A stretch of DNA of 59,598 bases from a virus (IMGVR_UViG_3300034782_000053), one strand, 5' to 3'; positions 3,483 to 56,726 are shown, counted from the stretch's first letter. Numbers and translations: made by a program. The notes: generated by a model from the sequence alone, not told the origin.

Positions 3483-3527
3483 AAAAAAGGTCGAGGTCTT
3501 GCGGAGATGAATAGTCCTGAGGATGGA

Positions 3528-4373
3528 TTATAACGGAGTCTCGCCGAACAGCTCGACGAGCTTGGCAACGCGCCCAGAGACGGGCATTTCGCAGAACTCC
3601 TCGCCCTGGATCGCCTCGACATGCTTCTGGTGCTTCCAGCCGTCGAGGATCTCATCGATGAGGTCAGAGGACTTACCGGCTTCGATGGCCTCTTTGACGC
3701 GATCGGTGAGTCTCACGTACTTCTCTTCATCGCTGACCACTTCGATGGTAGCCATTCCCTTCTCATCGAGTCGATCGATAAGCATTGCGAAGGCAGCCTG
3801 GGGGTCGGCTAGCGTCCAGGCAGCAATCGCCTCCATGGCGTGGTAGGGTATTTTTTCACCCACCGCGTCGAGAAACTCGACCTCCATCTTCTGCTCTTCG
3901 TCGACCCCGTGGTTGCAGCCGCACTGCCCGCAGTCACAGGCTTCCTCCCCGTGCTCATAGGAGAGTGGTCCTGTCTTGCAGCCTTCGCAGAAATCGTGCG
4001 CTCCAGGGGGCTCGACGAGACACCAGCGCTCGACTTCGTAGTGGTGCTCATGACCTTCGATAGGAGGGAGCTTGGCGAACTGAAAGATGCAGAACTTGTC
4101 TCCGAGCTGCATGGACTCACCGAGATTGATGGCTCGCCCCTCCTCTTTCAGCTCGATCATGTACTCGCCGACCTGATTAAGGATGCTGCCAGCCATCCCG
4201 TAGAGAAACGTCTGGAGCCCGCGAATCTCCAGCTCGGGGAGCCCGAACTTGTCGAGCCCATGGGTATGAACCCAGCCATGAGCCGGGCTCCCCTCCTTGT
4301 CGCTGATGAGATGGACTGCGATCATCTCTTGAATGCGTGGTTTTTCTGTCTCGCTCACAGTATTTCCTCCCAT
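3528..4373 (-). CDS. hypothetical Cys/His-rich protein (start at internal ATG 4373; ORF-track start 4475 is a probable 5' extension)
   Basis: ATG at 4373 (cat 4371-4373). The stretch upstream of 4373 overlaps the NUDIX gene, so the internal start is the more plausible one. CEGC...CDCGQCGC cluster. Confidence 0.55.
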   Translation of the reverse strand: MGGNTVSETEKPRIQEMIAVHLISDKEGSPAHGWVHTHGLDKFGLPELEIRGLQTFLYGMAGSILNQVGEYMIELKEEGRAINLGESMQLGDKFCIFQFAKLPPIEGHEHHYEVERWCLVEPPGAHDFCEGCKTGPLSYEHGEEACDCGQCGCNHGVDEEQKMEVEFLDAVGEKIPYHAMEAIAAWTLADPQAAFAMLIDRLDEKGMATIEVVSDEEKYVRLTDRVKEAIEAGKSSDLIDEILDGWKHQKHVEAIQGEEFCEMPVSGRVAKLVELFGETPL

Positions 4374-4981
4374 GGGCCTATGCCGCATGTCTTGCATGTC
4401 CCCGTGCATCTGGTGCCGAGGTTGAAGTAGTTGGCGACGGGAAGGTATCGGAACATGTCCGCGGTGATCTGGCACTCCGGACAGGTCCCGCCCATCGCAT
4501 CGAGCTTATCGGCATTGGACTGGAGCCCCCTTTGGATCTCAACGGGGACACCTGCGTCGTCGGAGACACCATCCGGCTGCTTTCCAAGGATGTCAGGGTG
4601 TTCCTTCATCAGATTGAAAACGGGGAGAAACTGGGGAAATGGAATGTTGTCCTTTTCAACCCAGAGCCATTTTGCGCACTTATCAGGTTCTCGAAGCGCA
4701 GGCGTGCCTTCTGCATCGGCAAAGAGGAACAGGGTGATGTAGTGCTTCTTCTCTGCAAGAAAGATATCGTTGGTCCATGGGCCACGGCGAATGTTGAGCA
4801 ACCGCAGTCCCGTCTCCTCCATTGCCTCGCGCTCGCAGGCCTGCTCTGGCGTCTCACCGGGCTCGATGTGTCCACCTGGAAAGGACCAGCGGCCGGCCCC
4901 GTGTGAGTTTTTCCTCTGGCCCATGAGGATCTTGCCGTCGCGCTCGATGATGGCTGCTACGCCGACTTTTACTTTGTCCAT
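4355..4981 (-). CDS. NUDIX hydrolase with C-terminal Cys4 zinc-ribbon extension
   Basis: Canonical Nudix box GGHIEPGETPEQACEREAMEETGL (Gx5Ex7REUxEExGU). ATG at 4981 with GGGAGGG SD. Position 5005 in the ORF track is a GTG. C-terminal CPEC...CKTC. Confidence 0.85.
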   Translation of the reverse strand: MDKVKVGVAAIIERDGKILMGQRKNSHGAGRWSFPGGHIEPGETPEQACEREAMEETGLRLLNIRRGPWTNDIFLAEKKHYITLFLFADAEGTPALREPDKCAKWLWVEKDNIPFPQFLPVFNLMKEHPDILGKQPDGVSDDAGVPVEIQRGLQSNADKLDAMGGTCPECQITADMFRYLPVANYFNLGTRCTGTCKTCGIGPWEEIL

Positions 4982-5466
4982 ATCTTCTCGCCCTCCCAGT
5001 CCCACCAGGCGGTTCCTGGCTTGCCTTCGAGGTGGTCCATACAGAACTTGAGCATATCGGTCAGATCGGTGAAGACGACCTCGTCTCCTATCGACTTGAT
5101 CCAGCCATGTCCGTTGTTGAAGTGGGGCTCGACGATGTAGCCGTTTCTCCCGGTGCGTATCGATACTCCCCGCGCCGTCTCTTTCTCGCCGATCATCTCG
5201 TCGCGATCGATAGAGCGAGTCTCAGGAAGCGCGGAGAGGTCTCCTGTCAGGTATGTCCGAAGGTAGGAGACGGCGTCATGTGCGTTCTTGACGATCTGGG
5301 GATTGGTAAAGAGCATGGAGCCACCGAAGTATCCTCCGGACGATCCCCCCTGGTCAGAGGACGACGTAACGGTTGTGATGCGTTCGTTTGTCAAGATGGA
5401 GACGGTGCGCTGAAAGATTCTTTCAGGCATCGCGATGTCGCTGTTCTTTTCTTTTTCCGTCGTCAT
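4969..5466 (-). CDS. hypothetical protein (165 aa)
   Basis: ORF with ATG at 5466. Gly/Ser-rich linker. Compact co-directional context. Confidence 0.6.
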   Translation of the reverse strand: MTTEKEKNSDIAMPERIFQRTVSILTNERITTVTSSSDQGGSSGGYFGGSMLFTNPQIVKNAHDAVSYLRTYLTGDLSALPETRSIDRDEMIGEKETARGVSIRTGRNGYIVEPHFNNGHGWIKSIGDEVVFTDLTDMLKFCMDHLEGKPGTAWWDWEGEKIWTK

Positions 5467-5468
5467 GG

Positions 5469-5951
5469 CTAATCGTCCTTGTCGAATATGGTGGAGTCAA
5501 AGATGCCGCCACCAAAGTCAGACATTTTCGGCATCTTTGGCATCTTCGGCATAGGCGGCTTCGGAGGCATCTTCATCCTCCATGGGCTCGTCTTCGGACG
5601 CATCTTCATCCTCCATGGGCTCGTCGGTGGCTTCGGACGCTTTGGACGCTTCGGACGCTTCGGCTTCTTGATAACCGGCTTCTTCAGCTTCTTCTTCGGG
5701 GGGATGGGTTCTTTGTCGCGAGGCGCGCGTTGGAAGCCATCGGTCACCATTTTGCCGTCGTACCATTCGGCTCCGCAACGGGTGCAGAACTTGTCGATGC
5801 CGGCGTCTGGATGGAGGTGCGAGAGCCCGGCGTTCTTCCCCATGTTGATGCCGAGCACATACCACTTGTGACCGATAAACCAGCAGACGGGCCGAGCCCA
5901 CCAGCGTTTGACGAGCATGGGGGTTTCGATTTTGGTGGTTCGATAGCCCAT
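5469..5951 (-). CDS. hypothetical protein with extremely basic Pro/Lys repeat tail (PKRPKRPKRPK, TSPWRMKM x2, PKMPKMPKM)
   Basis: ATG at 5951. Its DNA contains a 33-bp direct repeat x2 and a 9-bp ttcggacgc repeat x3-4 (5525-5670). Confidence 0.65.
   Translation of the reverse strand: MGYRTTKIETPMLVKRWWARPVCWFIGHKWYVLGINMGKNAGLSHLHPDAGIDKFCTRCGAEWYDGKMVTDGFQRAPRDKEPIPPKKKLKKPVIKKPKRPKRPKRPKPPTSPWRMKMRPKTSPWRMKMPPKPPMPKMPKMPKMSDFGGGIFDSTIFDKDD
5525..5670. repeat. in-gene direct repeats: 33-bp unit x2 (ttcggacgcatcttcatcctccatgggctcgtc) plus 9-bp ttcggacgc x3-4
   Basis: Read directly in the sequence. Encodes PKRPK / TSPWRMKM peptide repeats. Confidence 0.8.
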
Positions 5952-6263
5952 CTATGGAAGCTTCCCGACTCTTGAATCAGCAAACGGGCATTCAGCGCAG
6001 TCGTCGGGTGCGTTGCCGTTTTCATCAAAAAGGGGAGGCTTCGTTATTTCACAGCAGCAGTGGCACTCGCCAACTCCAGCAGCAGCCATAAGCTTGTTCT
6101 TTAGGTCACTGAAATCATGGGGCGACGTGTATACCCTCTCCAAGAAATCGTATAGATTGCTCGGCGCATGACCCGTGGCAAGATCAATGAAGTCCAGCGC
6201 ACATGCAACCTGCACCATCTCAGATCTTGTAAGCTCGACGGTTTCTTTTGATTCTGCTTTCAT
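5952..6263 (-). CDS. hypothetical Cys-rich protein (start 6263 supported by ATGA overlap with the upstream stop; ORF-track start 6311)
   Basis: cat at 6261-6263 overlaps the tca stop at 6260-6262. CHCCCE...CAECP motifs. Confidence 0.55.
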   Translation of the reverse strand: MKAESKETVELTRSEMVQVACALDFIDLATGHAPSNLYDFLERVYTSPHDFSDLKNKLMAAAGVGECHCCCEITKPPLFDENGNAPDDCAECPFADSRVGKLP

Positions 6264-6742
6264 TGTTGTCTCTCCCTCTCTCGGTTTAGTGAATCTATGA
6301 TGTTGACACACAGGAGTAATACGTTGTGAATGGTGCGAATTTCGTCCATCCTCAGGACGACGGTGTCATCGTCCTCGATGCCCTCCTCTCTGTCGACAAT
6401 GCGGCCCAATTCCAAGACGCGCTGAAGCGCTTGCTCGGGTGTCCAATCGAGGAGTAGCTCCCAGGCGCGCTGCTGCGTCTGTGGACAAGGCCCCATCGGG
6501 TAGTAGCCAGTGCCTCCACAGAAGCGGCAGATCCGCATCTGCATGCAAGAACGGCCCTCTTCGGTCAGATACCAGCACCCCCAAGGGTTGACGTCTCCAG
6601 GGCCTTCTTCTCGCTCCGAGAAGTCATGCCACTGTTCCAGGTACTCCATCATCTGCGAGCGATGAAACTCGTAGTATTCCTGCCGGCCAATGATCATCGG
6701 CGCATAGCCAGTGCCTCTGCATTTGATGCAAGTGCGTTTCAT
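6260..6742 (-). CDS. small protein with two DnaJ-type zinc-finger repeats (CxxCxGxG)
   Basis: CIKCRGTGY and CRFCGGTGY motifs. ATG at 6742 in an ATGA overlap with the upstream stop (6739-6741). ORF-track start 6910 is a 5' extension. Confidence 0.65.
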   Translation of the reverse strand: MKRTCIKCRGTGYAPMIIGRQEYYEFHRSQMMEYLEQWHDFSEREEGPGDVNPWGCWYLTEEGRSCMQMRICRFCGGTGYYPMGPCPQTQQRAWELLLDWTPEQALQRVLELGRIVDREEGIEDDDTVVLRMDEIRTIHNVLLLCVNIIDSLNRERERQQ

Positions 6743-7008
6743 AATCCCATCCACGAACGGATGATGACAAAGTACTTTCCGAGACCCGTCTTGGTCTCGA
6801 CCTCTGGATCCTCGATGTAGTATTTGCAGACGAAGGCCACGTGAGCCGGCTTGAATCGAGCATCCATATGCTTGGCGTGGAGGTAACTCCAGTTCTTGCA
6901 GATGCCCCACCAGGCGAATTTGAAGCTGGAGTGCTTGCAGGTGACGCAGCTCTCGACGATTCGGACCTCGTGGTCGGCAAGTATCTTGAGCTTGTTCTCA
7001 TCGGGCAT
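6739..7008 (-). CDS. hypothetical protein (89 aa)
   Basis: ATG at 7008. ATGA coupling to the downstream gene. Confidence 0.6.
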   Translation of the reverse strand: MPDENKLKILADHEVRIVESCVTCKHSSFKFAWWGICKNWSYLHAKHMDARFKPAHVAFVCKYYIEDPEVETKTGLGKYFVIIRSWMGL

Positions 7009-7064
7009 GGGGGCTCACCTCCCGCGGGCCGAGATGAGGAGAAATAGGACTGAGAAAGAACGTT

Positions 7065-7412: not shown

Positions 7413-7414
7413 CG

Positions 7415-7654: not shown

Positions 7655-7677
7655 GTCGTGCCTTCCTTTCTTTACTC

Positions 7678-8217: not shown

Positions 8218-8219
8218 GG

Positions 8220-8953: not shown

Positions 8954-8956
8954 GGC

Positions 8957-9896: not shown

Positions 9897-9909
9897 AGTG
9901 CAGAGAGAG

Positions 9910-10635: not shown

Positions 10636-11394
10636 TCAATCTGCCGACTCCTCCCAGGGGTCTGGAGGCCCCTGTTCCTCCATCAGGGCGATCCGCGCTT
10701 CGACGGCTGGCAGGTCGATGGTAAAGGGGTTGCCGGAGCGGAAGCCGCCGATGGTGACGACGTACTGGTAATCCTCGAAGCCGCCGCTCGGCTCGATGAG
10801 CGTGAGGATGGCGCCGCCGCCAATGCCCAGCGTGTCCTGAAGCTCGATGAGGACAGCCCCCTTCTTCCCCCACTGCTTCTCGGGGTTATCGCGCAGGAAA
10901 CGGAGAATCTTCAGCTCCTCGTGGTAGGTCAGCTCGTGGCCCAGCTCCCAGATAGTTCGATGGGTCCTGAAGAAGGAAAGCTCTTCGTCGAGATCGCCGC
11001 ACCACATGTTGCGGCTGAGCGCCTGCCACGCTTCGAGCGCGAACATGCCAGCGTGAGTATTTCCATCGCTGAAGGGGAACTCCATTCGGAACAGATCGTC
11101 CCGGAGCATCTTGGGGCTTTTCGATCCGTAGTCGGCCCCGAGCATGGTGATGAGCGTCCCCATGTCCTCGTGCATCGTTTCGAGCTTGAAGCGGACAACG
11201 ACCCAACACCATGGGTCAGAGAGCACCTGGACGGAGAAGTGGTCCTTTCCCGAGGGGTGCTCTGGATGAGGCACAGCGCGCTTGACCATCTTCATAGGCA
11301 GGCGCACCTGCCCTCCGTCCTCACGACGACTGCACTGAAGCTTGTGCTGGCCCAACATTCTGCACTCGGGGCATCGCTCTTTTTCCTTGGACAT
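10636..11394 (-). CDS. hypothetical protein (252 aa) with N-terminal CPEC zinc knuckle
   Basis: ATG at 11394 with an AAAGGA SD. Preceded by a copy of the CTGGACA + palindrome element. Confidence 0.7.
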   Translation of the reverse strand: MSKEKERCPECRMLGQHKLQCSRREDGGQVRLPMKMVKRAVPHPEHPSGKDHFSVQVLSDPWCWVVVRFKLETMHEDMGTLITMLGADYGSKSPKMLRDDLFRMEFPFSDGNTHAGMFALEAWQALSRNMWCGDLDEELSFFRTHRTIWELGHELTYHEELKILRFLRDNPEKQWGKKGAVLIELQDTLGIGGGAILTLIEPSGGFEDYQYVVTIGGFRSGNPFTIDLPAVEARIALMEEQGPPDPWEESAD

Positions 11395-11427
11395 CACGAT
11401 GGTCCTTTCGCTCGCACATATCCTAGG

Positions 11428-11477: not shown

Positions 11478-11484
11478 GCCGCCG

Positions 11485-12231
11485 ATGAAACAGGAACCGC
11501 TCTTTTTTCGCGGGGGACCGCGATTTGTCACTTCACAGGTCGTTAAGCAGGATGCGCTTGACTTTTTGGGAAGTCTTGAGGACGAATCGGTCGACCTCGT
11601 CGTGACCGACCCTCCCTACGAATCACTGGAGAAACACCGAGCAAAAGGGACAACGACCAGGCTCAGCCACTCGAAATCCTCTTCAAATGACTGGTTTCAA
11701 ATCTTCCCAAACTCACGCTTCGATGATCTGTTCAGAGTACTGTACCGCGTCCTCAGGATGGATTCACATTGCTACCTGTTCTGTGACCAGGAAACGATGT
11801 TTGTGGCAAAGCCGATCGCCGAAGAGGCCGGGTTCACGTTCCACAAGCCGCTCGTATGGGATAAGGTCGCCATCGGCATGGGCTATCACTACAGAGCCCG
11901 GTACGAACTGATCCTCTTCTTCGAAAAAGGAAAGCGAAAGCTCAACGACCTCTCCATTCCAGACGTCATCAGAGAGAAACGCATCTACAAGGGCTACCCC
12001 ACCGAGAAGCCAGTCCCCGTCCTCCGGACGCTCATCAGCCAAAGCACTGAGCCTGGCGAAGTCGTCTGCGACCCCTTCTGCGGGAGCGGCTCGGCCGGCG
12101 TCGCGGCTGTCGAGCTGGGGCGCATCTTCTGCGGAAGTGATATTTGCGACGAAGCGATCGAAGTTTCTACACGGCGAATCAAAGAGGCTCAAGCTCAGGA
12201 TCGATCAGAAGAGCCCGCTGCTGATCAGTGA
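11485..12231 (+). CDS. DNA methyltransferase, beta-class (N6-adenine or N4-cytosine); orphan (no cognate restriction enzyme in the window)
   Basis: Motif IV VVTDPPY near the N-terminus precedes motif I FCGSGSAG near the C-terminus. Typical MTase N-terminal GD..L..L...SVDLVVTDPPY. The only convincing plus-strand gene. Confidence 0.85.
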   Translation: MKQEPLFFRGGPRFVTSQVVKQDALDFLGSLEDESVDLVVTDPPYESLEKHRAKGTTTRLSHSKSSSNDWFQIFPNSRFDDLFRVLYRVLRMDSHCYLFCDQETMFVAKPIAEEAGFTFHKPLVWDKVAIGMGYHYRARYELILFFEKGKRKLNDLSIPDVIREKRIYKGYPTEKPVPVLRTLISQSTEPGEVVCDPFCGSGSAGVAAVELGRIFCGSDICDEAIEVSTRRIKEAQAQDRSEEPAADQ

Positions 12232-16702: not shown

Positions 16703-18388
16703 TCATCGCCTCACGTAGGTTAGTAGCTCATTTATGGTCTCTCCGAGCCGCTGTGTCGCCGCCTGAAGGGGCGTAACCGTGAAGGGGTTGTAGACCTTTT
16801 CCTCTGGCCAGCCCTCGACAGCGTCGAAAACAGCGTTTGCGACGGCGATGATTACGTCGTAGGAGGAAAGCGCCGCCGCCTTGATCGGCTCAGGCATGTC
16901 TTCCTGCGCTTCGACATGAGCGCGCTTCAGCTCGGCGAGAACGACCAGCGGAGGAGCAACGTCTCGGATGTTCTCGACTGATCTCTCGACGTAGGGGAGC
17001 TGGTCCGGCGTCGGGTCGTTGAATTTCTCCTGAGTATCCCGATGCCAGCCGTACTCATACCACTTCCACACCCACATGTTGATGATGCCCAGCTCCTCTT
17101 TGAGATGGGCCACCTCGTAGACAAGGGAATACTGCCACCTCGCCCACTCGTCTTGCCCTGAGTCTCCTCGCCTGGTCAGCTTTCCGAGAGAGCCAAGGAT
17201 GCAGTGAGCAGCCTCAGCGATGTTCTGGGCGCCCAGCTCCAGCATGGTTGCGGATCCGAAGTTGCCGCCCTCAGGCATGCCGCCGTACATCTCGGTGCGG
17301 AGCGGGCATTTCCACTCTTGCGGGTTCTCGTCTGGTGATTCGCGTGATGCAAGGAGCCACTGGGTCTGCATCCACCCCTGGCCAAACTTATCGATCTGCG
17401 GGTGTTTGTGCATCTCTTCACGCCACACGCTCTCGTCGCCTACTTTCTTCCACGGGCTGGCATAGGGCGAAGAAAGATATTCCTGAACTTCGTAGGAACT
17501 CAGCTCGTCGTTTTGAATGCGCACCTCTGTGATAGTCTCTTCGTTTTCGAGCATCGCATGAGCCAGCGCCTCGATCGCCTTCAAGATCTTCACGTTAGCC
17601 TTGCGCGTCCTGTAGATGGTCTGGACCGCGTCGATGACGACGATGGGTCCGGGCTCGACCTCGACCATCTCCATACGAGTTCCGCCCGGCCTCGTTCCGC
17701 CCTCTACCTCTTCGTAGACCCCCTGAGTTCGCCAGGCCCACGCGATGGCAACGGGTTTGTTTCGCCTCTTTTCAACTTTGGAGACGAGATAGAGGCGAGC
17801 GTGGGGACTTTCTATGGTGTCCCAGGCGTATTCGGGGCGGCTCGAACCAGAAACCGACCAATCAAAGATGTCATCAAAGAAGGCGACCCGCGGGTCGATC
17901 GATTCGAGCATCTCGACGCGGTACCCATCGAAGTTGATGATAACGTCTGGCATCGTGTTGTCGAAAAAAGCGCTCCTTGCCTCCGTTACCCACAGCTCTG
18001 CAGCCTCTTCGAGTGGCATCTTCCTCTGCCCGATGTAGACGCCGTCGTCGTGCCCTCGCTCGATGGCCCGCTCGATGAAGTTTCGCCTCCAACCAAGCTC
18101 GATCAGCTCCGCGGGCTCGTCTCCCGTCCATTTTTTGCCGATTCCCTGTTGTTGAACCGCATCGTCGACGACGCGGATCATCTCGATGTCGGTGGCGATA
18201 CCATCATCTATTCCATGCTCGGTGTAGGCCCTTGTGATGCGAGCCCACAGCGGCAGCGGATAGCCCATCTCTTCGAGGACCAGCGCTTCTTCGGCGTCCT
18301 CGTCACTGAAGTCGGTCTTGCCGATCCAGCGGCCTGGAAGCAGCTCGATGCGCTTGCCATCTTCTGGCATCCTCAGGACGAGTCCCAT
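16703..18388 (-). CDS. EMGY-domain family paralog 6 (561 aa, largest member)
   Basis: MGLVLRMPEDGKRIELLPGRWIGKTDFSDEDAEEALVLEEMGYPLP. Long unique C-terminal region. Confidence 0.8.
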   Translation of the reverse strand: MGLVLRMPEDGKRIELLPGRWIGKTDFSDEDAEEALVLEEMGYPLPLWARITRAYTEHGIDDGIATDIEMIRVVDDAVQQQGIGKKWTGDEPAELIELGWRRNFIERAIERGHDDGVYIGQRKMPLEEAAELWVTEARSAFFDNTMPDVIINFDGYRVEMLESIDPRVAFFDDIFDWSVSGSSRPEYAWDTIESPHARLYLVSKVEKRRNKPVAIAWAWRTQGVYEEVEGGTRPGGTRMEMVEVEPGPIVVIDAVQTIYRTRKANVKILKAIEALAHAMLENEETITEVRIQNDELSSYEVQEYLSSPYASPWKKVGDESVWREEMHKHPQIDKFGQGWMQTQWLLASRESPDENPQEWKCPLRTEMYGGMPEGGNFGSATMLELGAQNIAEAAHCILGSLGKLTRRGDSGQDEWARWQYSLVYEVAHLKEELGIINMWVWKWYEYGWHRDTQEKFNDPTPDQLPYVERSVENIRDVAPPLVVLAELKRAHVEAQEDMPEPIKAAALSSYDVIIAVANAVFDAVEGWPEEKVYNPFTVTPLQAATQRLGETINELLTYVRR

Positions 18389-19476
18389 CAGTCCACCTCT
18401 ACCCAGAACGACTTACTTGATAACTTTGCTCCTCCAGCGCTCTTATGGCGGGTAATCTTTCGTGTTTTAGAGACAATCTCCCAGTCTGGACTCACCATAA
18501 AGATCTTGCCGGGGTCCATGTAGTCGAAGTCGTCATCAATTTCAAACACCGGAGGGGAAGGGTTTGTTTTTTTCGCACGCAACACGAATCGTACCCAGCT
18601 CCCACTACGGGGATTGACAATAAACCGATCAATGTAGTCAAGCGCTGCACGAGCAGCCTCTTCGCTGTTGTAGTAAGCGAAGAAGATTTCAAAGGGTTCA
18701 GCGATGGACACGGCCCATCGCCCGTCATGCTGTCCTTCAAGCGGAGAGTACTCCCAGCCTTGATAGACCCAGGGCTCCTCCAGCTCGCACGACCCCTTGT
18801 ATCCGCCCGTGATCCCGTTGAGCAATGCCTTCAGGTTGCGCTGCTCATCCAGCTCTTTGAAGGTAGTCTCGTCATCCAGGCCAGATGACCACTCGACGCT
18901 ATCGTTGACGAAGTCTCCCTCGTACTTGCCGTAATACCACTCATTCCAGGAGACCGCCTCTTTGCCGCCAATCTGCAGAGATGCCCGGCACTTTCCCTCC
19001 ACCAAGGAACCAGGCATTTCGGCCCCCTCCTCGATGGTCATATTTCCACCATCCTCAGGACGTATTTCAAACACTGTCGTCTGACTGACGAGCCCGCCGA
19101 GCTTCTTCAAGATGTCTCGTTGGTTTTCCCAGTCCACCTCGAAATAATTGACAATGTGAAACACCGCCTCGGTGATGTCCTCTTCCCACTCTGGACCGTA
19201 CCGCGCCTCGATCGTTTTCGGGTCCGCGTTCTCCAAGAACGAGTTGAGCCTCCCTGGGTCGACGAACAATGCAGCGAGCCCGTGTTCGTTGTAGCTCTGG
19301 ACAAGCTCTGCAATCGGCGACAGCTCGTAACCCATCTCGCCGAGTACGATCTCTTCCTCAAGCTCCTCCTGTGTGTAGCCGGCGACGTCGAGTCCTTCCT
19401 GTGAGACGTAGCAGAAGACCATCTCCGAGATGAGGTCGCTCTCGTCGATCACGAATTCGACGCCCGAGTAATTCAT
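18388..19476 (-). CDS. EMGY-domain family paralog 7 (362 aa)
   Basis: ...DVAGYTQEELEEEIVLGEMGYELSP. ATG 19476. ATGA overlap. Confidence 0.8.
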   Translation of the reverse strand: MNYSGVEFVIDESDLISEMVFCYVSQEGLDVAGYTQEELEEEIVLGEMGYELSPIAELVQSYNEHGLAALFVDPGRLNSFLENADPKTIEARYGPEWEEDITEAVFHIVNYFEVDWENQRDILKKLGGLVSQTTVFEIRPEDGGNMTIEEGAEMPGSLVEGKCRASLQIGGKEAVSWNEWYYGKYEGDFVNDSVEWSSGLDDETTFKELDEQRNLKALLNGITGGYKGSCELEEPWVYQGWEYSPLEGQHDGRWAVSIAEPFEIFFAYYNSEEAARAALDYIDRFIVNPRSGSWVRFVLRAKKTNPSPPVFEIDDDFDYMDPGKIFMVSPDWEIVSKTRKITRHKSAGGAKLSSKSFWVEVD

Positions 19477-25330: not shown

Positions 25331-26410
25331 TCAGCCCTCAAAATCCTCAGGACGATCTTGCCAGTTCTCTTCCAGGGGGCGCCACTCCAGATAGATGGGA
25401 TCGGGCTCTTCGACCTCCTGGGTAGCGCCACCGTTGAAAAGCCTGTACTGACGTCTCAGCGCGGCACGGTCTTTGGCCTCTTCGATGTCCTCGGCCTCTT
25501 CAGAAGGAGTACGACGCCGCACAAGAGACACCTCTACACTGTCTCCTGTTTCTCCTATCATCTTTTGCGCCAGTGCAGCCGCTTCGCTTGCGTCGCTTTC
25601 TCTGGCGTAAATGACGACCTCGACCTCAACCTCGGGTTCTTCGAGCTTCCCCTTGGTCGGATGCCAATAGGTCATCTCTTCGTACATCACCCCGAATAGC
25701 TCGTCGCTGTCTTCGTCTTCTGGCCTGGGAACGTAAAGATCGTCTTCGTCTGGCCCCTCTGGCTCTTCATCTTCAAGACCAAGCGCTTCAAGAACTTCTG
25801 TGAGCCCTTCGACCATTTCAGGGCCAATCTCAAGCCCAGCTTCTCTGAGGTCTGTCAGATCCGAATCAAAATACTTGTAGCTGTACGACGACCTCTCAAC
25901 AGCGTGCTCCCACTGAGCAATTTCCTCTCCGTCGATCATCAGCCGATGTGTCTCGTATCGAACCACTCGCGGATACCCGAATTGGTCTTCGCTGAGATGC
26001 GACTCTACCGTTATCTCTGGCATATCATTCAGGGACCACGGCATCTCCTTGATGACGCTGGCGACCGCAACGGCGTCGTCCGTGTATTCCTTGTTCATGT
26101 AGTGCTGAAGAGCGAGGACAAGGGCACTCTTGACATCATCGATGTCGAACGGCCACAGGCTTCGTCCGACGTAATAATCGTACTGGGTGCGTTTTCCCTG
26201 AAGCGCTTCGATGAAATCATCGAGCTGCCCTTCTTCCTTGAGGGCCTGGAGAACGAGGTCCCACGACTTAACAATCCAATAGTCGAGTCCCAGCTCATAG
26301 CCCATCTCGGCAAGGACAGCTTGCTCCTCCGGGTCATAGCCAGGGACTTCGAGACTTCCGTCGTCATGAATTATCGCGTCGAAGTCGCCGATTTTTATTT
26401 CGTAGGCCAT
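25331..26410 (-). CDS. EMGY-domain family paralog 14 (359 aa, acidic C-terminal)
   Basis: ATG 26410 (TGATG overlap). MAYEIKIGDFDAIIHDDGSLEVPGYDPEEQAVLAEMGYELG. Confidence 0.8.
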   Translation of the reverse strand: MAYEIKIGDFDAIIHDDGSLEVPGYDPEEQAVLAEMGYELGLDYWIVKSWDLVLQALKEEGQLDDFIEALQGKRTQYDYYVGRSLWPFDIDDVKSALVLALQHYMNKEYTDDAVAVASVIKEMPWSLNDMPEITVESHLSEDQFGYPRVVRYETHRLMIDGEEIAQWEHAVERSSYSYKYFDSDLTDLREAGLEIGPEMVEGLTEVLEALGLEDEEPEGPDEDDLYVPRPEDEDSDELFGVMYEEMTYWHPTKGKLEEPEVEVEVVIYARESDASEAAALAQKMIGETGDSVEVSLVRRRTPSEEAEDIEEAKDRAALRRQYRLFNGGATQEVEEPDPIYLEWRPLEENWQDRPEDFEG

Positions 26411-31256: not shown

Positions 31257-31993
31257 GGTGACGTCTCCTCATGGTATCGCTCGATGAAGTCGAGCGTGTG
31301 ATCGAGCTGCCACTTCTTCTCTTCCATCTCCGCCTTGTCAGGATCTTCGTTCTCCTGAATGGCCTTGTTCCTCACGGCCTCTTGTGCTTGCGAGCTGACC
31401 TCGAAGATGTACTTGAAAAAGTTCTTTTCGGCCTTTGCCCGAACCTTTGGTAGCGAGATGGCAACGAGCCACTCTGCAGCGTTGATGAGCTGAACGGCAC
31501 TTTTATTGGCGTGGTACGCAGCAGGTGGATGACCGACATACAGCCCTTGATCTCGAAGGTTTTTCCGAACCTTGTCGAGCATCATCGTTGTAAAACGACC
31601 CTCCAGCGAACCCTCTACCGCTCTCACGGCACTGTAAAACCAGGGGTGCTCAGCCTCCGCGAACATTTCAAAGTGCTGCTGCTGCCCGCGTTCAGAGAAT
31701 ACCCAATCGATGTGATGGACATAGTCAATCCCTAGCTGCACCCAGGCCTCGTATGGGAGAATGCCGACTCCGTAATCTTCCGTTGCCCAAAGCCCCCTCT
31801 GAAGCATCATGAGGACGTAGAGAGGCTTGGTGGGGTAGAAGTTGATAGCCTGGTAGCAGGGGCTACCGGAGTAACCCATCTCGACGAGAACGGCCTCCTC
31901 GTCGTAGTCAAAATCGAAGATGGTTAATCCACCGCGGTCTACTTCGACCTCGTGTACTCCACCTCCGCAGCGTATCTCCGTGACAATGGCCAT
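31253..31993 (-). CDS. EMGY-domain family paralog 19 (246 aa)
   Basis: MAIVTEIRCGGGVHEVEVDRGGLTIFDFDYDEEAVLVEMGYSGSPC. Sits between the VWA gene and the AAA+ ATPase genes. Confidence 0.8.
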   Translation of the reverse strand: MAIVTEIRCGGGVHEVEVDRGGLTIFDFDYDEEAVLVEMGYSGSPCYQAINFYPTKPLYVLMMLQRGLWATEDYGVGILPYEAWVQLGIDYVHHIDWVFSERGQQQHFEMFAEAEHPWFYSAVRAVEGSLEGRFTTMMLDKVRKNLRDQGLYVGHPPAAYHANKSAVQLINAAEWLVAISLPKVRAKAEKNFFKYIFEVSSQAQEAVRNKAIQENEDPDKAEMEEKKWQLDHTLDFIERYHEETSP

Positions 31994-35589: not shown

Positions 35590-36117
35590 TTACCAGCTAC
35601 CGGACACCGTCAACGCAGGTGCGTCATCAGCGAACTCCACCACAAAAACACCTATCGACACGGCGTATGCACAAATATCTATCAGCTTCTTGCTGTAACC
35701 AACTTTCTTCCTTACCCCTCGAAGCTCTTCAAAGAATCCATCTTCATCTGGGATACTTACGAGATACCCTCTTTGAATTGTTTGCACCTCAAACCAGGTG
35801 TCATAGTTCAGCGCTTTACGGTCGTTCTCTTCTCTTTCGAGCGTAAACCGATCCGACGGTTTTATGCTTTCGATTGAAACCGTTAGAACAGCGTAAGAGG
35901 CCTCCATACTTTCTGGAAGAAACCCGTTGTCTCTGTAGAAAGAATAAGGCTCGTTAACGAGCTGATGCCACAGCGTGTAGCACTCCGTCGGGTCGTAACC
36001 CATCTCGACGAGCGTGATGTCGTGCTCAATATCGTAGTTGAGAAACTCAGGACCCTCAGGCGTCAGCCGGATACGAATGGGGCGTCCCTCACATTCGACT
36101 TCAATGACCGGGGTCAT
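35590..36117 (-). CDS. EMGY-domain family paralog 21 (175 aa)
   Basis: Internal ATG 36117 adjacent to the upstream stop. MTPVIEVECEGRPIRIRLTPEGPEFLNYDIEHDITLVEMGYDPTEC. Confidence 0.8.
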   Translation of the reverse strand: MTPVIEVECEGRPIRIRLTPEGPEFLNYDIEHDITLVEMGYDPTECYTLWHQLVNEPYSFYRDNGFLPESMEASYAVLTVSIESIKPSDRFTLEREENDRKALNYDTWFEVQTIQRGYLVSIPDEDGFFEELRGVRKKVGYSKKLIDICAYAVSIGVFVVEFADDAPALTVSGSW

Positions 36118-36377
36118 CTCGACCTCAGGATGTAGCCGATGACCATCCCCGTGATGGCTCCCCACGCCACGAGATCGCATCGTCTCCGCACGTACCACGG
36201 GCGCTGGCTTTCTCGCACCCGGGCCAGCTCTTGATTTGCGACTGCCTGCGCCGGATGCTGATGCAGCGCCGCCTCTTGCTGACCTATGACGACAGCGTAT
36301 TGCTCCACGAACGGTTCGAGCGTCGCCGGGTCTGAGAGCGGCATCTGGTTCGGCATATTGGCGTCAGGGCTCTGCAT
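36114..36377 (-). CDS. small protein with C-terminal hydrophobic anchor (87 aa)
   Basis: ATG 36377. C-terminal LVAWGAITGMVIGYILRSR. Confidence 0.55.
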   Translation of the reverse strand: MQSPDANMPNQMPLSDPATLEPFVEQYAVVIGQQEAALHQHPAQAVANQELARVRESQRPWYVRRRCDLVAWGAITGMVIGYILRSR

Positions 36378-39579: not shown

Positions 39580-39598
39580 CGTCCTCACCTATTCTAAC

Positions 39599-39611
39599 CG
39601 TCCTGAGGATG
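39599..39611. other. copy of the recurrent 13-mer CGTCCTGAGGATG (CATCCTCAGGACG on the coding strand), intergenic
   Basis: 27 nt upstream of the start of 38977..39579. See the 13-mer finding for the other copies. Confidence 0.5.
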
Positions 39612-39622: not shown

Positions 39623-40225
39623 CTATTCTTCGCCCTCACGAGCTTTCTTACGCTTGCGGAGCCACGTCCAGAACAGGGCGCCTCCACCAACAGCAAGGGT
39701 GATGATCGCAAACGCCTTGATCGGTCGCTCTCGCCGCTCTCGTTCTTCGATGACCTGAAGAAACTCGGCCGGCTTGACAAGCCTCCTTCGCCAACCGGTT
39801 ATGCCAGCGACGTCAAGAACCTTCTCGCTCATGGCCTCACGGAACCCCGGAGACGCGATGAGATCAGCGCCCTCTTGTAGCCACTGCTCTCTCCATTCAG
39901 CGCAGCGGCGCTCACGCCACGGATCCCGCTGATGTGCCCCCTGATGTACTTCGGGAGGACACTCCGTTGAAGCATTGCAGGAGCAGATGAAGTTGTGCCC
40001 CGGTACGGAAATCTCCATGGTGTACGGAACAGACGACCGAAGCACTTCTTCACGCGGAGCATTGTGGTAACAGCGACAGTTGACGTTTTCCAGAGAGACC
40101 TCAGCGATCGCCCAAGGAGCTACGCGCCTGGTCTCGCTAAAAGGAATGTAGCGATCGCCAAGCGCACCGAGCGCCGTAGGGTATGGCTTGGTCGAAACAC
40201 TTTTTCCGGTGTTGTATTCGTACAT
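39623..40225 (-). CDS. MYEY-family tail-anchored membrane protein (200 aa), Cys-rich
   Basis: ATG 40225 gives MYEYNTGKS. Positions 40231-40226 are TTG-ATC. C-terminal AFAIITLAVGGGALFWTWLRKRKKAREGEE. Confidence 0.75.
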   Translation of the reverse strand: MYEYNTGKSVSTKPYPTALGALGDRYIPFSETRRVAPWAIAEVSLENVNCRCYHNAPREEVLRSSVPYTMEISVPGHNFICSCNASTECPPEVHQGAHQRDPWRERRCAEWREQWLQEGADLIASPGFREAMSEKVLDVAGITGWRRRLVKPAEFLQVIEERERRERPIKAFAIITLAVGGGALFWTWLRKRKKAREGEE

Positions 40226-44281: not shown

Positions 44282-45211
44282 TCAGCCTTCCACCAGAACG
44301 AAATCCTTTTCTTCTTTGGCCCCCAGAAGCTGAGCAAGCGAATAGAGACCCAGCGGCGTGAGAGCCGCCACTGTCATCGCTGCATATGCTCCCACTAACC
44401 CCCATGGAAGACTCCCTCCTATTTTTTGGCCTGCCCAAAAACCTAAAACTGGGCTCGAAACAATAAACATTGTCAGGTATTTTCCACCAAACGCCGCCTC
44501 CATCGCGAAGGCAGCGGCTTTTACATAAACACGAAGAGGCCAGAGAGCCCTCCCGGTCAATCTATTCTGTGACCAGGTGATCATGGCCTTTGCCAGCTTG
44601 TAACGACCGTAGGTCAGAACATGCACCGGCTCTTCTATCGGCGGCATGTCCCGCAGAGTCTTCCTCACCTTGTACTCGGCAAGCAGAGAGTCGCGCTGAC
44701 CAAAAACAAATCGAGCCTGAACGAGGCAATAGGGAGCACTGCAGGTCTTGAGGCGCCATGATTCAGCAATCGCCTTGTTGAGCGAATCTGTTAGCTCCTC
44801 GTCAGACATCTGCTTGACCACGGATGGTTTCTCCGGGATCGGAACAATGCTTTCGACCGGGAGAGGCGTGTCTTCGTCATCCAGGTCTGCCCCAAGAACA
44901 TCCTGAGGACCACTGTTAAAGGAATTAATACGATGAGAGTAAGCAGCCGGGCTCTCTTCCATCGTCCGCATGGTCCAGGTGTATGACCGTGGGAAGGGCT
45001 TCACTCGCCCACCACCGATAGGAATCGAGTAGTTACGGTTAACGCGGATTTCGCCGTTGAGGCAGACCCGATGTTCCCCCTCAGGTTGTATTGGGCGAGC
45101 TGACCATACGCCGGCAAAGCGTGGAACGATTCCACTTGCGGCATAAACCTTTGAGCCGTTCTTGCTCTTACGAACACGCACATAAGGCGCCTTTTGAATT
45201 CCGTAGCTCAT
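44282..45211 (-). CDS. membrane protein with C-terminal 2-TM region (MSYGIQKAPY...), 309 aa
   Basis: ATG 45211 in a TGATG overlap. C-terminal FIVSSPVLGFWAGQKIGGSLPWGLVGAYAAMTVAALTPLGLYSLAQLLGAKEEKD. Confidence 0.7.
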   Translation of the reverse strand: MSYGIQKAPYVRVRKSKNGSKVYAASGIVPRFAGVWSARPIQPEGEHRVCLNGEIRVNRNYSIPIGGGRVKPFPRSYTWTMRTMEESPAAYSHRINSFNSGPQDVLGADLDDEDTPLPVESIVPIPEKPSVVKQMSDEELTDSLNKAIAESWRLKTCSAPYCLVQARFVFGQRDSLLAEYKVRKTLRDMPPIEEPVHVLTYGRYKLAKAMITWSQNRLTGRALWPLRVYVKAAAFAMEAAFGGKYLTMFIVSSPVLGFWAGQKIGGSLPWGLVGAYAAMTVAALTPLGLYSLAQLLGAKEEKDFVLVEG

Positions 45212-54385: not shown

Positions 54386-56227
54386 TCAGTAGTCTTCCAT
54401 GTTGGCTTCAAGACCAGACGGCGAAGACGGAAGTTCCTGTTGACGACGGCGGTAGTACCAGTAGCCACCGCCTGCTACCCCGAGCGCGAGAAGGAGTAGC
54501 CACCACCAGTTTTGCTGACACCAGGTTCTCTCTGGGCCGACCTCCTGGGCAGTAGCCGCAGCCTCCTGGGTGGTGAGGTTGATATCTTGCAGTATTTCGT
54601 TCGCTTCCGTTTCAGCATCCAGAACATCCTCAGCAGCTATGGCGACATCCTGCTCCATGTCCTGAATGGTCTCTTGAACCTGTGACACCTGACCCTGTGG
54701 AACAGCACCAGCGGCGAGCAGACGGCGAAGGCGATTGATTTCCTCCTCCATACGGTAAATCTGCTCCTGGTTCTTTTCCGCAGCGACGCGAGCTGCTTCG
54801 AGGTGTTCCTTCTGAGCGGCGGCGAGCGCGGCCGTCAGCTCATCGACTTCTTTTTTCAAACGTTCCAAGTCCTCAGGGCTTGCGGTTCCGGCCGCAACCT
54901 CGTCTTTCTTGGCGTCAAGCTCGTCCTTCTTCGAGTCGAGTTTTTCTTTGATATCCTCGACTTCCTCTTCTTTTTGGGACGCTTGAAGGACGGCCTCCTC
55001 GGCTTTTTCTGGGTCTTTCGCAACGTCGTAGATAGGATCCTCTGGCTCCCTTTCGCCCTCCATGATTCTGCGGTGCACTTCCTCCCCCCGCACCAGTAGC
55101 CTTGTACCTGTGGTCGCATCTTGAGCGACCTCTTCTGCCGTTGAAGGGGTCGTCGGCTCGATGTAACCGAAGATCTCCATGCGAGCCGTACCGACAGGGC
55201 ACGAAACAACGTTTTTCTCGGCGGCGACGTCGTAGATGGGGGCGACCACCCCGACCGCCGTTGAGCGCTTGGACCCACCAGCCGTTTCGACGTCTGTTTT
55301 CCGGATCGCGTCCTCTGCCTTTCGCTCGGCCTCGTGTCGAGCGAACATATCCGTGCGTTCTCGCTCGCGACGAGCACGAGCCTCTGCACGTACTTCAGGG
55401 GTCGCCGTCTCCAGGGCCTTTCTTTCGGCGTCATGCCTAGCCCTCAGATCGCGCACCTCCTGGCTCCGTCGCTTCTCCGCGTCTCTTCGCTGCTCAGCGT
55501 GCCGCTGCACTGCGCCGACTTCGATAGCGCCGAGACCAATCGAACCTACAGGCGCGGGGGCGCTTCTCCCCCCATTTCCGTTCCGAGCATCCTGGCGGAT
55601 ATCCCAGTATTGGAAGGTTAGAGCCGGGATATGATTCGGATACACAGTGCTCGCCGAAGATGCAAAGGTGTGAAGCGCAGCCCAGAAGTCCTTATCACAC
55701 CCCTCACACCAGCTTTTGAACAGCTCGACCTTGCCGAGCGCACGTTGTTGGGCGACCGCAAGAGACACAGCTTCTTGCTGCTGAATCTTCTTCGCGATAT
55801 CGGTGATCGTGATCGAATCCTTCAGCGTCCTGAGGACTCTGGCCTTTGCGTTGAGGTAGTTGCGATAGTTTGCAGCAGGAACCCGAATCGGTGTCGCATG
55901 CCAGTTGATAGAGTTAAAGACAGATATCGGATACCGCTTTCGCAGGTACATTCGAAGAGTTGCAACGTCGACAGCCTTCACAGCGGACATCGGAACTGTG
56001 GGCGCCGCTTTTCCAGCGGTCGATTTCACAACCATCGTTGGCGCCACTGTGCGCGCCGTCGAAGTTGGCGCCACTGAGACAGTCGAAACCTGTGATGGCG
56101 CAGATTTCCCGATGGTTGGGATTGACGTTGGGTAGTAGGCCGATTTTGAAGCAGGTGTTCTTGAAATCGACGTTTGGACTGTTGATGCAGCGCCCATGCC
56201 GGCCATGGGGTAGTGCTCGTAAGGCAT
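54386..56227 (-). CDS. long coiled-coil, C-terminally membrane-anchored protein (613 aa), MYEY-like N-terminus (MPYEHYPMAGMG)
   Basis: ATG 56227, 6 nt after AGGAGG. The ATG at 56233 abuts the SD. Extended heptad-rich region. C-terminal WWWLLLLALGVAGGGYWYY. Confidence 0.75.
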   Translation of the reverse strand: MPYEHYPMAGMGAASTVQTSISRTPASKSAYYPTSIPTIGKSAPSQVSTVSVAPTSTARTVAPTMVVKSTAGKAAPTVPMSAVKAVDVATLRMYLRKRYPISVFNSINWHATPIRVPAANYRNYLNAKARVLRTLKDSITITDIAKKIQQQEAVSLAVAQQRALGKVELFKSWCEGCDKDFWAALHTFASSASTVYPNHIPALTFQYWDIRQDARNGNGGRSAPAPVGSIGLGAIEVGAVQRHAEQRRDAEKRRSQEVRDLRARHDAERKALETATPEVRAEARARRERERTDMFARHEAERKAEDAIRKTDVETAGGSKRSTAVGVVAPIYDVAAEKNVVSCPVGTARMEIFGYIEPTTPSTAEEVAQDATTGTRLLVRGEEVHRRIMEGEREPEDPIYDVAKDPEKAEEAVLQASQKEEEVEDIKEKLDSKKDELDAKKDEVAAGTASPEDLERLKKEVDELTAALAAAQKEHLEAARVAAEKNQEQIYRMEEEINRLRRLLAAGAVPQGQVSQVQETIQDMEQDVAIAAEDVLDAETEANEILQDINLTTQEAAATAQEVGPERTWCQQNWWWLLLLALGVAGGGYWYYRRRQQELPSSPSGLEANMEDY

Positions 56228-56277
56228 TCCCATCCTCCTGAGGGTGGAGTTCTCTCTGAATTTCTCAGAAGGGGGCC

Positions 56278-56300
56278 GGCGTGATAGAACATATCACGCC
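56278..56300. other. perfect hairpin palindrome GGCGTGATA-GAACA-TATCACGCC in the largest intergenic gap of the cluster
   Basis: 9-bp stem and 5-nt loop. Followed on the plus strand by TTTAAATGTTAAAG. A 13-mer motif copy is nearby (56319-56331). Confidence 0.5.
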
Positions 56301-56347
56301 TTTAAATGTTAAAGCAAGCGTCTTGAGGATGAACGAACCTTGGCAGC

Positions 56348-56698
56348 TCAGTTCGCAGCGGCTCGATAGGGCACGTAGACAGGCACCCGAGAGTAGCCAG
56401 CAAGCTGCGGAGCCTCGTAAAGCTCTGTCCCGGTCGGCTCCTCCTCCTCGCCATGCGAAAGCATCATCTCTTTGATGGCGAGCCCGACGGCCGTCAGAAT
56501 AATCGCCGGAATTATTGGCCTTTCTGGCCACTTCTTGATAGCCCACAGCCCGATTGGCAGGCTAACAATCGTTCCTACGACACCGATTTTCACCAGGAGC
56601 TTGATGATGTCCCAGTCCTGCTGAGACAACGAAAGTAAACCGCCACTCTCGGTCGGCTGTTGCAGTGCTTCACTGCCGAGAGGAGCGAGAGAATACAT
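56348..56698 (-). CDS. small 2-TM membrane protein (116 aa)
   Basis: MYSLAPLGSE...IVSLPIGLWAIKKWPERPIIPAIILTAVGLAI. Confidence 0.65.
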   Translation of the reverse strand: MYSLAPLGSEALQQPTESGGLLSLSQQDWDIIKLLVKIGVVGTIVSLPIGLWAIKKWPERPIIPAIILTAVGLAIKEMMLSHGEEEEPTGTELYEAPQLAGYSRVPVYVPYRAAAN

Positions 56699-56713
56699 GG
56701 GTTCAAGCTAGCA

Positions 56714-56726
56714 CGTCCTCAGGATG
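56714..56726. other. copy of the recurrent 13-mer (CGTCCTCAGGATG), intergenic, 19 nt upstream of gene 56348..56698
   Basis: Read directly in the sequence. Confidence 0.5.

Follow-up and report, generated by a model that had tools for sequence, protein, structure and literature searches.

Small DNA sites that recur throughout a mobile element and recruit the same protein are a known kind of regulatory system. The KorB protein of plasmid RK2 acts at 12 sites on a 60,099-bp molecule that lie 39-2000 bp from start sites, and it represses at a distance (PMC3199767). Its operator, OB, has the core TTTAGCGGCTAAA and is built as a 13-bp inverted repeat around one central G/C (PMC11790492), and KorB belongs to the ParB family of partitioning proteins (PMC5577506, PMC11790492). 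The stoperators of cluster A mycobacteriophages, which are bound by repressors of the L5 gp71 type, are also 13 bp long, number more than 20 per genome, occupy promoters and short intergenic spaces, and are oriented according to the direction of transcription to achieve genome-wide silencing (PMC9283540). Cluster O mycobacteriophages carry more than 30 dispersed copies of a 17-bp dyad repeat (TGTTCGGNNNCCGAACA), approximately one-third of them in genes and many at gene junctions; a dimeric DNA-binding protein has been predicted for these repeats, whose function is not known (PMC4351075). Finally, cluster K mycobacteriophages have start-associated sequences, a 13-bp repeated motif linked to gene starts (PMC4351075; see also PMC3203893). 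Here we describe a 13-mer dispersed over a 59,598-nt stretch of viral DNA (IMGVR_UViG_3300034782_000053), the whole of which we refer to as the window. This 13-mer is a real, selected, and conserved cis-element of a new lineage, and its sequence is new and its built-in asymmetry unusual. We see about an even chance that it is the dispersed duplex-DNA operator of one sequence-specific protein that serves as a global transcription regulator.

The original prediction held that a 13-mer reading CATCCT[CG]AGGACG, or its reverse complement, is highly over-represented in the window, and this was confirmed. When one mismatch is permitted, CGTCCTSAGGATG occurs at 14 window sites, compared with 0.21 +/- 0.43 sites in 100 dinucleotide-preserving shuffles of the 59.6-kb sequence, none of which reached 14. 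The symmetric form CRTCCTSAGGAYG has six exact window sites compared with 0.00 in shuffles, and a seventh exact copy resides 5 kb past the window end (positions 658-670 of metagenome contig L004). All nine sites listed originally exist, two of them shifted by one base (3513 rather than 3514, and 6347 rather than 6348), and the list was incomplete because it lacked an exact copy at 11748-11760 and the one-mismatch copies at 2859, 31805, 33285, and 44899 (Table 1). A search of the literature for the motif string matched only PCR primers.

The original prediction would have been refuted if the repetition simply reflected a preferred way to encode the peptide RPED in many paralogs. This is not the case. 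Coding copies are read in two frames, CGT CCT GAG GAT (RPED) and GTC CTG AGG ATG (VLRM), and each of these peptides occurs only three times in the predicted proteome, with five of the six occurrences encoded by the 13-mer. The codons employed are not the preferred ones (CGT 16%, CCT 23%, GAT 40%), and the codon-usage probability of CGT-CCT-GAG-GAT is ~0.01. All four copies in the R-P-E/D-D frame (three of which encode RPED) use GAT, whereas the synonymous GAC is commoner (60%), and the T of this codon preserves at a synonymous position the flank asymmetry described below. Because two frames are used, the peptides are rare and mostly motif-encoded, and the codons are non-preferred, we conclude that the DNA motif dictates the peptides and not the reverse. 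A codon or paralog artefact was rejected on these grounds, and also because the proteins are unrelated and conservation covers only the 13 columns.

Two relatives were informative. In contig L006, which has ~81.5% nucleotide identity to the window, the copy orthologous to that at 11748 is kept as CATCCTGAGGACT with one change at an outer position, an outcome that is consistent with constraint and is not significant alone. Contig L008 comes from a different metagenome, is syntenic with window positions 246-10639, and has a GC content of 49% compared with 56% for the window. All matched neighbors but one (an 81-amino-acid protein, 79%) share 30-48% protein identity, and no nucleotide similarity is present around the sites. 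The 12.4 kb of L008 contains two exact CRTCCTSAGGAYG matches, compared with 0.00 in shuffles. One of these, CATCCTCAGGACG, is intragenic, is read in the RPED frame, and has the orientation that is usual for coding copies. The other, at 8190-8202, is the perfect palindrome CGTCCTCAGGACG and is intergenic, following a DUF4026_C-like gene. The surrounding region is orthologous to window 3373-3527, and the copy matches the position of the one at 3513. When the two intergenic regions are aligned, only three islands are conserved, namely the 13-mer, TTTTTTCTrGAC, and TAGCAyATGCTAC, and the 13-mer lies upstream of the T-run by 24 nt in the window and 27 nt in L008. Because L008 keeps it, the 13-mer has been maintained by selection over deep divergence, at one orthologous position or more.

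An alignment of 18 copies with 20-nt flanks reveals that the 13-mer comprises two inverted CRTCCT half-sites about one central base (CRTCCT-S-AGGAYG), such that 11 of the 13 positions are palindromic. The central base is C or G in 18 of 18 copies and never A or T, and both bases occur with either orientation of the flanks. Among RTCCT/AGGAY spacings of 0-12, only 1 bp is enriched (11 sites, compared with 0-3 at the others). This obligatory G:C pair, found in either sense, points to two-fold recognition of duplex DNA and is hard to reconcile with a signal in RNA or single-stranded DNA. Conservation ends at the edges of the 13-mer, and a longer repeat or mobile mini-element was rejected because the flanks are unconserved.

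The outer positions of the motif are not symmetric. Position 2 is A in one half-site and G in the other in 13 of 15 tallied copies, most of which are A2/C12. The two exceptions are G/G copies (window 55826 and L008 8190), and an A/A combination never occurs. Independent choice would make about half of the copies hetero, and our own binomial estimate for the observed excess is p ~0.003.

Placement of the 13-mer relative to genes is also non-random. Non-coding DNA constitutes 2.9% of the window yet holds four of the 14 copies (p=5.5e-4), and eight of the 14 either overlap the first codons of a gene or precede its start by no more than 100 nt (p=8e-4). Across all 14 copies in the 59.6 kb, the distance to the next downstream start codon is 2 to ~1300 nt, or the copy overlaps it. 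Each of the four non-coding copies follows an upstream stop codon closely (by 2, 11, 16, and 4 nt) and reads CATCCTSAGGACG on the sense strand. Coding-overlapping copies, counted to include those in L004, L008, and the methyltransferase gene of the window, show CGTCCTSAGGATG in 10 of 12 instances when the gene that holds them is read in its sense direction, and the contrast between the coding and non-coding copies of the window has a Fisher p of 0.011. This orientation is only suggestive because amino-acid frequencies could account for part of the coding bias. The earlier claim that all intergenic copies read CATCCT[CG]AGGACG on the minus strand holds for those at 3513, 39599, 56319, and 56714, which are non-coding, and the copy at 36120 reads the same way and occupies the last codons of a gene. 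Start distances of 19-100 nt had been proposed for these copies, and the actual range is 2 to about 140 nt.

Strand orientation bears on the suggestion that the 13-mer functions as RNA or as a single strand, either as a processing site, as had been put forward, or as a translational operator. The CGUCCUSAGGAUG strand could fold into a triloop hairpin of 5 bp, one of them a G.U pair, and the other strand has an A.C mismatch, which would make the A2/C12 asymmetry a signature of the strand that is read. The mRNA carries CGUCC..GGAUG at 10 of 12 coding copies and the opposite sequence at all four non-coding copies (the contrast given above), and several copies adjoin start codons. However, the center is C/G whatever the orientation, and mismatched copies break pairs with no compensatory change. 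The hairpin is very weak, the sequence around the sites folds no better than shuffles do (z -1.6 to +0.85, with five of six values within +/-1), and the orientation bias may derive partly from amino-acid frequencies, given that Arg is commoner than His. Searches returned no Rfam match at gathering threshold, and neither a known RNA family nor a tRNA was found. A role as an RNA or single-strand element is very unlikely on this evidence, and RNA processing is disfavored for the same reasons.

Several copies appear to be integrated with promoter-like sequences. The three exact sense-oriented copies, at 11748, 39599, and 56714, are each followed 2-3 nt downstream by TANNNT (TACAGT, TAGAAT, and TAGCTT, respectively). 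This pattern has a background of 0.4% per position, for a binomial probability of ~2e-5 in a test that was chosen post hoc, and it follows none of seven reverse-oriented coding copies. We consider these hexamers to be putative -10 elements. As judged from consensus sequences, the copy at 56714 would fill the spacer of TTGACC-18-TAGCTT, the copy at 11748 would be associated with GTGAAT-17-TACAGT, and that at 39599 would have TAGAAT with a poor -35. The start site predicted for the promoter at 56714 is the A of the ATG at 56698, which opens a gene for a 116-amino-acid protein (56348..56698). Most other starts that follow an intergenic gap have a Shine-Dalgarno sequence, but this one does not, and a leaderless mRNA is predicted for the gene because its ATG sits 7 nt after TAGCTT. 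A gap of 2 nt separates the copy at 36120 from the start codon of the paralog gene 35590..36117, and the copy therefore supplies the GAGG ribosome-binding site of that gene.

The same observations can be read as evidence for a positive promoter element, wherein an activator or sigma appropriator encoded by the element would combine with a host-type -10 to define a temporal promoter class, much like the T4 MotA box, and the reverse copies within genes would have a secondary function or none. The TANNNT hexamers at +2/+3 of three exact forward copies fit this proposal, as do the forward orientation of all four wholly non-coding copies, the presence of a good -35 at only one of the three (56714), which is seen with activator-dependent promoters, and the gene at 56698, which has no ribosome-binding site and whose mRNA would carry no leader if transcribed from the 56714 promoter. 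However, nine further reverse coding copies lack a -10 and are kept far above chance by non-preferred codons, the copy at 36120 is almost adjacent to an ATG, and the copies at 3513 and L008 8190 lie ~70 bp upstream of a different and complete promoter-like module. The obligatory S center and near-palindromy also speak against a sigma or -35-like element; to our knowledge, neither property is typical of such elements. We regard the positive promoter element as possible but unlikely.

In the operator reading that we prefer, one protein, acting as a dimer or a two-domain monomer and encoded by the element or by its host, would bind the 13-mer duplex. At promoter-embedded copies, the bound protein would control initiation directly, and the sign that we prefer is repression by occlusion. 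The promoter-linked copies would include the one at 56714, located in the spacer, and those at 39599 and 11748, located 2-3 bp before TANNNT, and the 3513 copy and its L008 counterpart would act from ~70 bp upstream of a TGGACA-18-TACTTT module. Copies at gene junctions and within genes would serve as auxiliary, roadblock, or loading sites, a mode of action known from the KorB operators of RK2 and from cluster A stoperators. A regulator or sigma binding site was among the functions first proposed, and this option is favored by the symmetry of the motif, its placement, the orthologous position in L008, and the -10-like hexamers. The motif is demonstrated together with its statistics, symmetry, placement, and conservation; the binding of a protein, the identity of the TANNNT hexamers as -10 elements, and the sign of regulation are inferred.

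Several points weigh against this reading. No helix-turn-helix (HTH), ribbon-helix-helix (RHH), or ParB domain was detected among 106 proteins from ~75 kb of the element by using Pfam and PHROG, with relaxed thresholds for 20 small proteins; the region covered is at most about half of an element that exceeds 150 kb. Copies differ in where they lie relative to putative promoters (within a gene, in the spacer, beside the -35, or ~70 bp upstream). The -10 and -35 elements were assigned by comparison with consensus sequences, and a generic promoter scan gave no enrichment of sigma-70-like sites. (A generic terminator scan likewise gave no enrichment.) Furthermore, a simple homodimer leaves the preference for hetero (A/G) flanks unexplained, and the conservation rests on the two relatives described above.

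The flank asymmetry might itself be functional, in which case a new lineage of large phages would be using the 13-mer to control transcription in an orientation-dependent manner. Forward copies, which are confined to non-coding DNA directly past stop codons, would serve to gate promoters or to insulate them. The reverse copies inside genes, kept by synonymous codons, would stop antisense or read-through transcription and spare sense transcription. The result would be genome-wide silencing or insulation by a new DNA-binding protein that is invisible to current profiles. This scheme is decidedly unlikely.

Comparison with the systems introduced above places the operator reading in context. The 13-mer is similar in format to KorB OB of RK2/RP4: both are 13-bp inverted repeats with one central S, the densities are 12 copies per 60 kb for OB and 14-15 here, and copies range from promoter-proximal (39-40 bp) to 2 kb for OB and from 2 to ~1300 nt from starts here. 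Global repression at a distance would also be common to both. The OB operator TTTAGCSGCTAAA is unrelated to the 13-mer, however, and the 13-mer flanks are asymmetric. Three copies of the 13-mer would lie within promoter spacers by consensus reading, no ParB-family protein was found in the 75 kb examined, and the element is viral-looking rather than a conjugative plasmid.

Another possibility is a chromosome-organizing site, either a parS-type centromere or a site for condensation or packaging, that is bound by a ParB-like, clamp, or bridging protein. Sequence identity across distant relatives is typical of parS sites, and the 13-mer is identical in a distant relative. Other agreements include its near-palindromy, its dispersed copies, the presence of many of these in genes, and the OB-like format in view of the ParB-family membership of KorB (PMC5577506, PMC11790492). 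Counter to this, no ParB, ParA, or SMC-like domain was found in the 75 kb examined, the copies are not clustered at a single locus, and neither the enrichment at stop/start junctions nor the fixed -10 spacing is expected for a purely structural site. We therefore consider a chromosome-organizing role to be quite improbable.

Stoperators share with the 13-mer a length of 13 bp and a dispersed distribution, and all four non-coding copies of the 13-mer share one orientation. In contrast, stoperators are fully asymmetric, and the repressor that recognizes them is a monomer composed of an HTH and a stoperator domain, whereas the 13-mer is a near-palindrome for which 10 of 14 copies overlap coding sequence, mostly in the reversed orientation. 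In addition, no such repressor, integrase, or evidence of lysogeny is seen in these 75 kb. Cluster O repeats differ from the 13-mer in length, 3-bp spacer, and sequence, and are mostly not at predicted promoters, whereas a -10-like hexamer accompanies three exact copies of the 13-mer, and a further copy keeps its position beside a promoter-like module in L008. Cluster K sequences are closely linked to translation starts, whereas only the copy at 36120 is at ribosome-binding-site distance here, and the others are 13, 15, 19, or 75-140 nt from starts or are intragenic. We do not claim membership of the 13-mer in the KorB-OB, stoperator, cluster O, or cluster K families: its sequence differs from all of these, it has neither the full symmetry of OB nor the full asymmetry of stoperators, and the 75 kb examined yielded no ParB, HTH, or RHH protein.

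A final explanation invokes DNA modification or restriction, in which the 13-mer would be the target of the orphan methyltransferase of the window, as had been suggested, or its CCTNAGG core would be read by a host system. This core is the recognition sequence of Bsu36I-type enzymes, the methyltransferase gene itself carries one copy, and the strong avoidance of other 6-bp palindromes indicates that restriction pressure is real. However, the enzyme (window 11485-12231 by the deposited gene calls) is a 248-amino-acid beta-class N6A/N4C methyltransferase whose closest solved relatives are CcrM, M.MboIIA, and DpnA, and beta-class enzymes of such size recognize 4-5 bp. The whole 13-mer is therefore unlikely to be its target. 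Moreover, restriction-modification targets are 4-8 bp long and usually depleted in phage DNA, whereas the conserved unit here is 13 bp and enriched, and CCTSAGG outside the 13-mer occurs as expected (14 sites once 12 motif cores are removed, compared with 11.5). Methylation alone would account for neither the over-representation nor the placement at gene boundaries. Overall, we judge modification or restriction to be highly improbable as the explanation. With regard to this gene, a 581-amino-acid plus-strand open reading frame (10486-12231) was rejected as an over-call; the deposited annotation has the 248-amino-acid enzyme plus a minus-strand gene for a 219-amino-acid protein (10636..11295).

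Table 1. Copies of the 13-mer and associated promoter-like features. Positions refer to the window unless a contig is named.
Feature	Position	Strand	Context
13-mer, 1 mismatch (CATCGTCAGGACG on +)	2859..2871	+	Within minus-strand gene 2776..3063, RPDD frame; 75 nt upstream of ATG of gene for 845-aa (amino acid) protein
13-mer, 1 mismatch (CATCCTCAGGACT, sense strand)	3513..3525	-	Wholly non-coding; 2 nt past TAA of gene 3528..4358; 24 nt upstream of T-run/TGGACA/palindrome promoter-like module (3452-3488)
13-mer, exact on +	6347..6359	+	Gene 6260..6742, whose sense strand reads CGTCCTGAGGATG, VLRM frame
13-mer, exact (CATCCTGAGGACG on minus strand)	11748..11760	-	Within plus-strand methyltransferase gene 11485..12231, whose own sense strand reads CGTCCTCAGGATG (VLRM); TACAGT (11739-11744) 3 nt later on minus strand
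13-mer, exact on +	18368..18380	+	Sense codons 3-7 (VLRM) of paralog gene 16703..18388
13-mer, exact on +	19050..19062	+	Within gene 18388..19476, RPED frame
13-mer, 1 mismatch (AATCCTCAGGACG)	25342..25354	+	Last codons of gene 25331..26410 (RPED); 13 nt upstream of ATG at 25328
13-mer, 1 mismatch (CATCATGAGGACG)	31805..31817	+	Within paralog gene 31253..31993
13-mer, 1 mismatch, sense orientation (AATCCTGAGGACG)	33285..33297	-	Within MoxR-like gene 31996..33459; one of two exceptions to coding-orientation rule
13-mer, 1 mismatch, sense orientation (CATCCTGAGGTCG)	36120..36132	-	Last codons of gene 36114..36377; 2 nt before ATG of first paralog (35590..36117)
13-mer, exact, sense orientation	39599..39611	-	Wholly non-coding; 11 nt past stop of gene 39623..40225; 19 nt before ATG at 39579
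TAGAAT, -10-like hexamer	39591..39596	-	2 nt downstream of 39599 copy
13-mer, 1 mismatch (CATCCTGAGGACC)	44899..44911	+	Within gene 44282..45211
G/G-type variant (AGTCCTCAGGACG / CGTCCTGAGGACT)	55826..55838		Within gene for 613-aa protein; one mismatch from perfect palindrome CGTCCTSAGGACG
13-mer, 1 mismatch, sense orientation (CATCCTCAAGACG)	56319..56331	-	Wholly non-coding; 16 nt past stop of gene for 116-aa protein; abuts putative TTGCTT-18-TATGTT promoter (by eye)
13-mer, exact, sense orientation	56714..56726	-	Wholly non-coding; 4 nt past stop of gene 56731..57501; 15 nt before ATG at 56698
Sigma-70-like promoter frame (sequence reading)	56705..56734	-	TTGACC (56729-56734), 18-bp spacer, TAGCTT (56705-56710)
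Palindrome module	3452-3488		
Palindrome module	9910-9923		Module ~9907-9945
Palindrome module	11429-11442		
Palindrome module	L001 16709-16722		
Palindrome module	L001 19839-19852		
Palindrome module in relative	L008 8230-8265		

The promoter-like module near the 3513 copy belongs to a second over-represented motif that is unrelated to the 13-mer. This is the 14-bp perfect palindrome GTAGCAYATGCTAC, with seven strand matches compared with 0.2 expected. In most copies, a T-run and TGGACA precede GTAGCAYATGCTAC and TACNNT is at the end, a sigma-70-like TGGACA-17/18-TACNNT arrangement in which GTAGCAYATGCTAC would fill the spacer and the -10. All copies are intergenic, three are in divergent intergenic regions (including 11296-11484), and the module is kept in the distant relative L008; a search for its pattern in viral contigs found no relatives. 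The module is probably an operator or promoter of another regulatory class. Because both motifs sit in promoter-like frames, and a terminator described below points to bacterial-type RNA polymerase, we read the 13-mer and the palindrome as candidate operators that are embedded in promoters of the host type and answer to separate regulators.

Other local features adjoin individual 13-mer copies. A 23-bp perfect inverted repeat at 56278-56300 (GGCGTGATA-N5-TATCACGCC) is intergenic, precedes the gene for the 613-amino-acid protein, and overlaps TATGTT, a possible -10 in the putative promoter beside the 56319 copy, which starts 1 nt after that copy. The repeat may represent a third operator type or a hairpin. 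Near the other end of the window, two small genes for proteins of 115 and 95 amino acids (2776-3420) are located between the 13-mer/promoter module and the gene for the 845-amino-acid protein, and L008 has none in the corresponding interval (8177-8293). The degenerate 13-mer at 2859 lies upstream of the latter gene at a distance resembling the 91 nt of the L008 counterpart, an arrangement that suggests an insertion or a duplication of the control region.

The 81-amino-acid protein that is exceptionally well conserved in L008 is rich in Cys and His and is encoded at window 9957-10202 (minus strand) and L008 1366-1611. Its family comprises 146 clusters in a representative library, and IMG/VR contigs as long as 237 kb encode it while having nothing else in common with this region. 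Those contigs lack the 13-mer, and the protein is therefore not the motif binder. Three of these contigs (L009-L011) were rejected as relatives of the element, as they have only this protein in common with it.

The window is part of a larger uncultivated element, for which exact-protein look-ups found matching JGI/Logan metagenome contigs. A 112,965-bp contig begins at approximately window position 17,969 and extends past position 1, and the element must therefore exceed 150 kb. Contig L001 provides ~10 kb more beyond window position 1, L004 provides 5.6 kb more past 59,598, and the overlap of each with the window is 100% identical. Our own gene calls, compared with the deposited ones, give ~80 closely packed genes, and that for the methyltransferase is the sole one on the plus strand. 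The only families recognized among the 106 scanned proteins are two MoxR-type ATPases, a DUF2201/VWA protein, NUDIX, DUF5661/DUF5662, glycosyltransferases, a radical-SAM enzyme, and the methyltransferase. The remaining proteins are ORFans, including a 17-member paralog family.

Members of this paralog family (window 12179-36117) have in common an N-terminal domain of ~60 amino acids with the pattern C-D-G ... Y-D-x-E-E ... V-L-x-E-M-G-Y ... C and have highly variable C-terminal parts. Their genes are interspersed with those for the MoxR-type ATPases and the DUF2201/VWA protein, and only four homologs were found among 5.8 billion clustered proteins. The two MoxR-type paralogs (32904 and 34340 regions, minus strand) contain a near-identical stretch of ~60 nt (GTTCTGTTCCTGGACGAGTTCACGAGCATGAGCCC...), a similarity suggestive of either a recent gene conversion or a strongly constrained Walker B region.

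The element is probably a large phage. Its weak protein similarities are to large phages, and 6-bp palindromes are strongly avoided in it, as detailed below. No deposited phage matched it at the nucleotide level. A 'portal' PHROG match could not be assigned to a protein, and a PHROG scan of 10 further proteins for structural genes gave nothing, so the viral nature is best described as likely. Searches for relatives in viral contigs found none by way of the 845-amino-acid, MoxR, DUF2201, or 991-amino-acid proteins or alignment A3, and none were found in genome contigs or, via the MoxR protein, in metagenome contigs. A concatenated query of all site-flanking proteins (3861 amino acids) had no match, and the search with the 613-amino-acid protein matched only itself.

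A canonical intrinsic terminator at 41647-41666 (minus strand), with an 8-bp stem (CAACCACG/TGTGGTTG) followed by GATTTTTATG, separates two paralogous genes for proteins of 460-500 amino acids; it implies transcription by bacterial-type RNA polymerase. Several 6-bp palindromes are strongly avoided (observed compared with expected: CTCGAG 0 and 44, GAGCTC 0 and 41, CAGCTG 0 and 26, GGGCCC 0 and 12, TTCGAA 10 and 33), and across the whole window CTAG occurs 27 times compared with 61 expected and GATC is likewise depleted. This avoidance suggests strong restriction pressure and DNA that is unmodified at those sites. The cyanobacterial HIP1 sequence, examined as a host clue, is not enriched (5 compared with 3.0).

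Because nearly all of its proteins are ORFans, the element is otherwise unreadable, and the 13-mer provides a first handle on the organization of its gene expression. The 13-mer should also be of practical use as a marker for members of this lineage in metagenomes, because it is exactly conserved between relatives whose proteins are 30-48% identical. Together, the 13-mer and the palindrome module mark candidate promoters and regulatory classes that can be synthesized and tested without cultivation of the host. If one protein does read all copies, the 13-mer would constitute another independent case of genome-wide control by dispersed operators, in a different lineage. Such control is known so far from IncP plasmids and actinophages, and here it would employ a site that is half palindromic and half directional.

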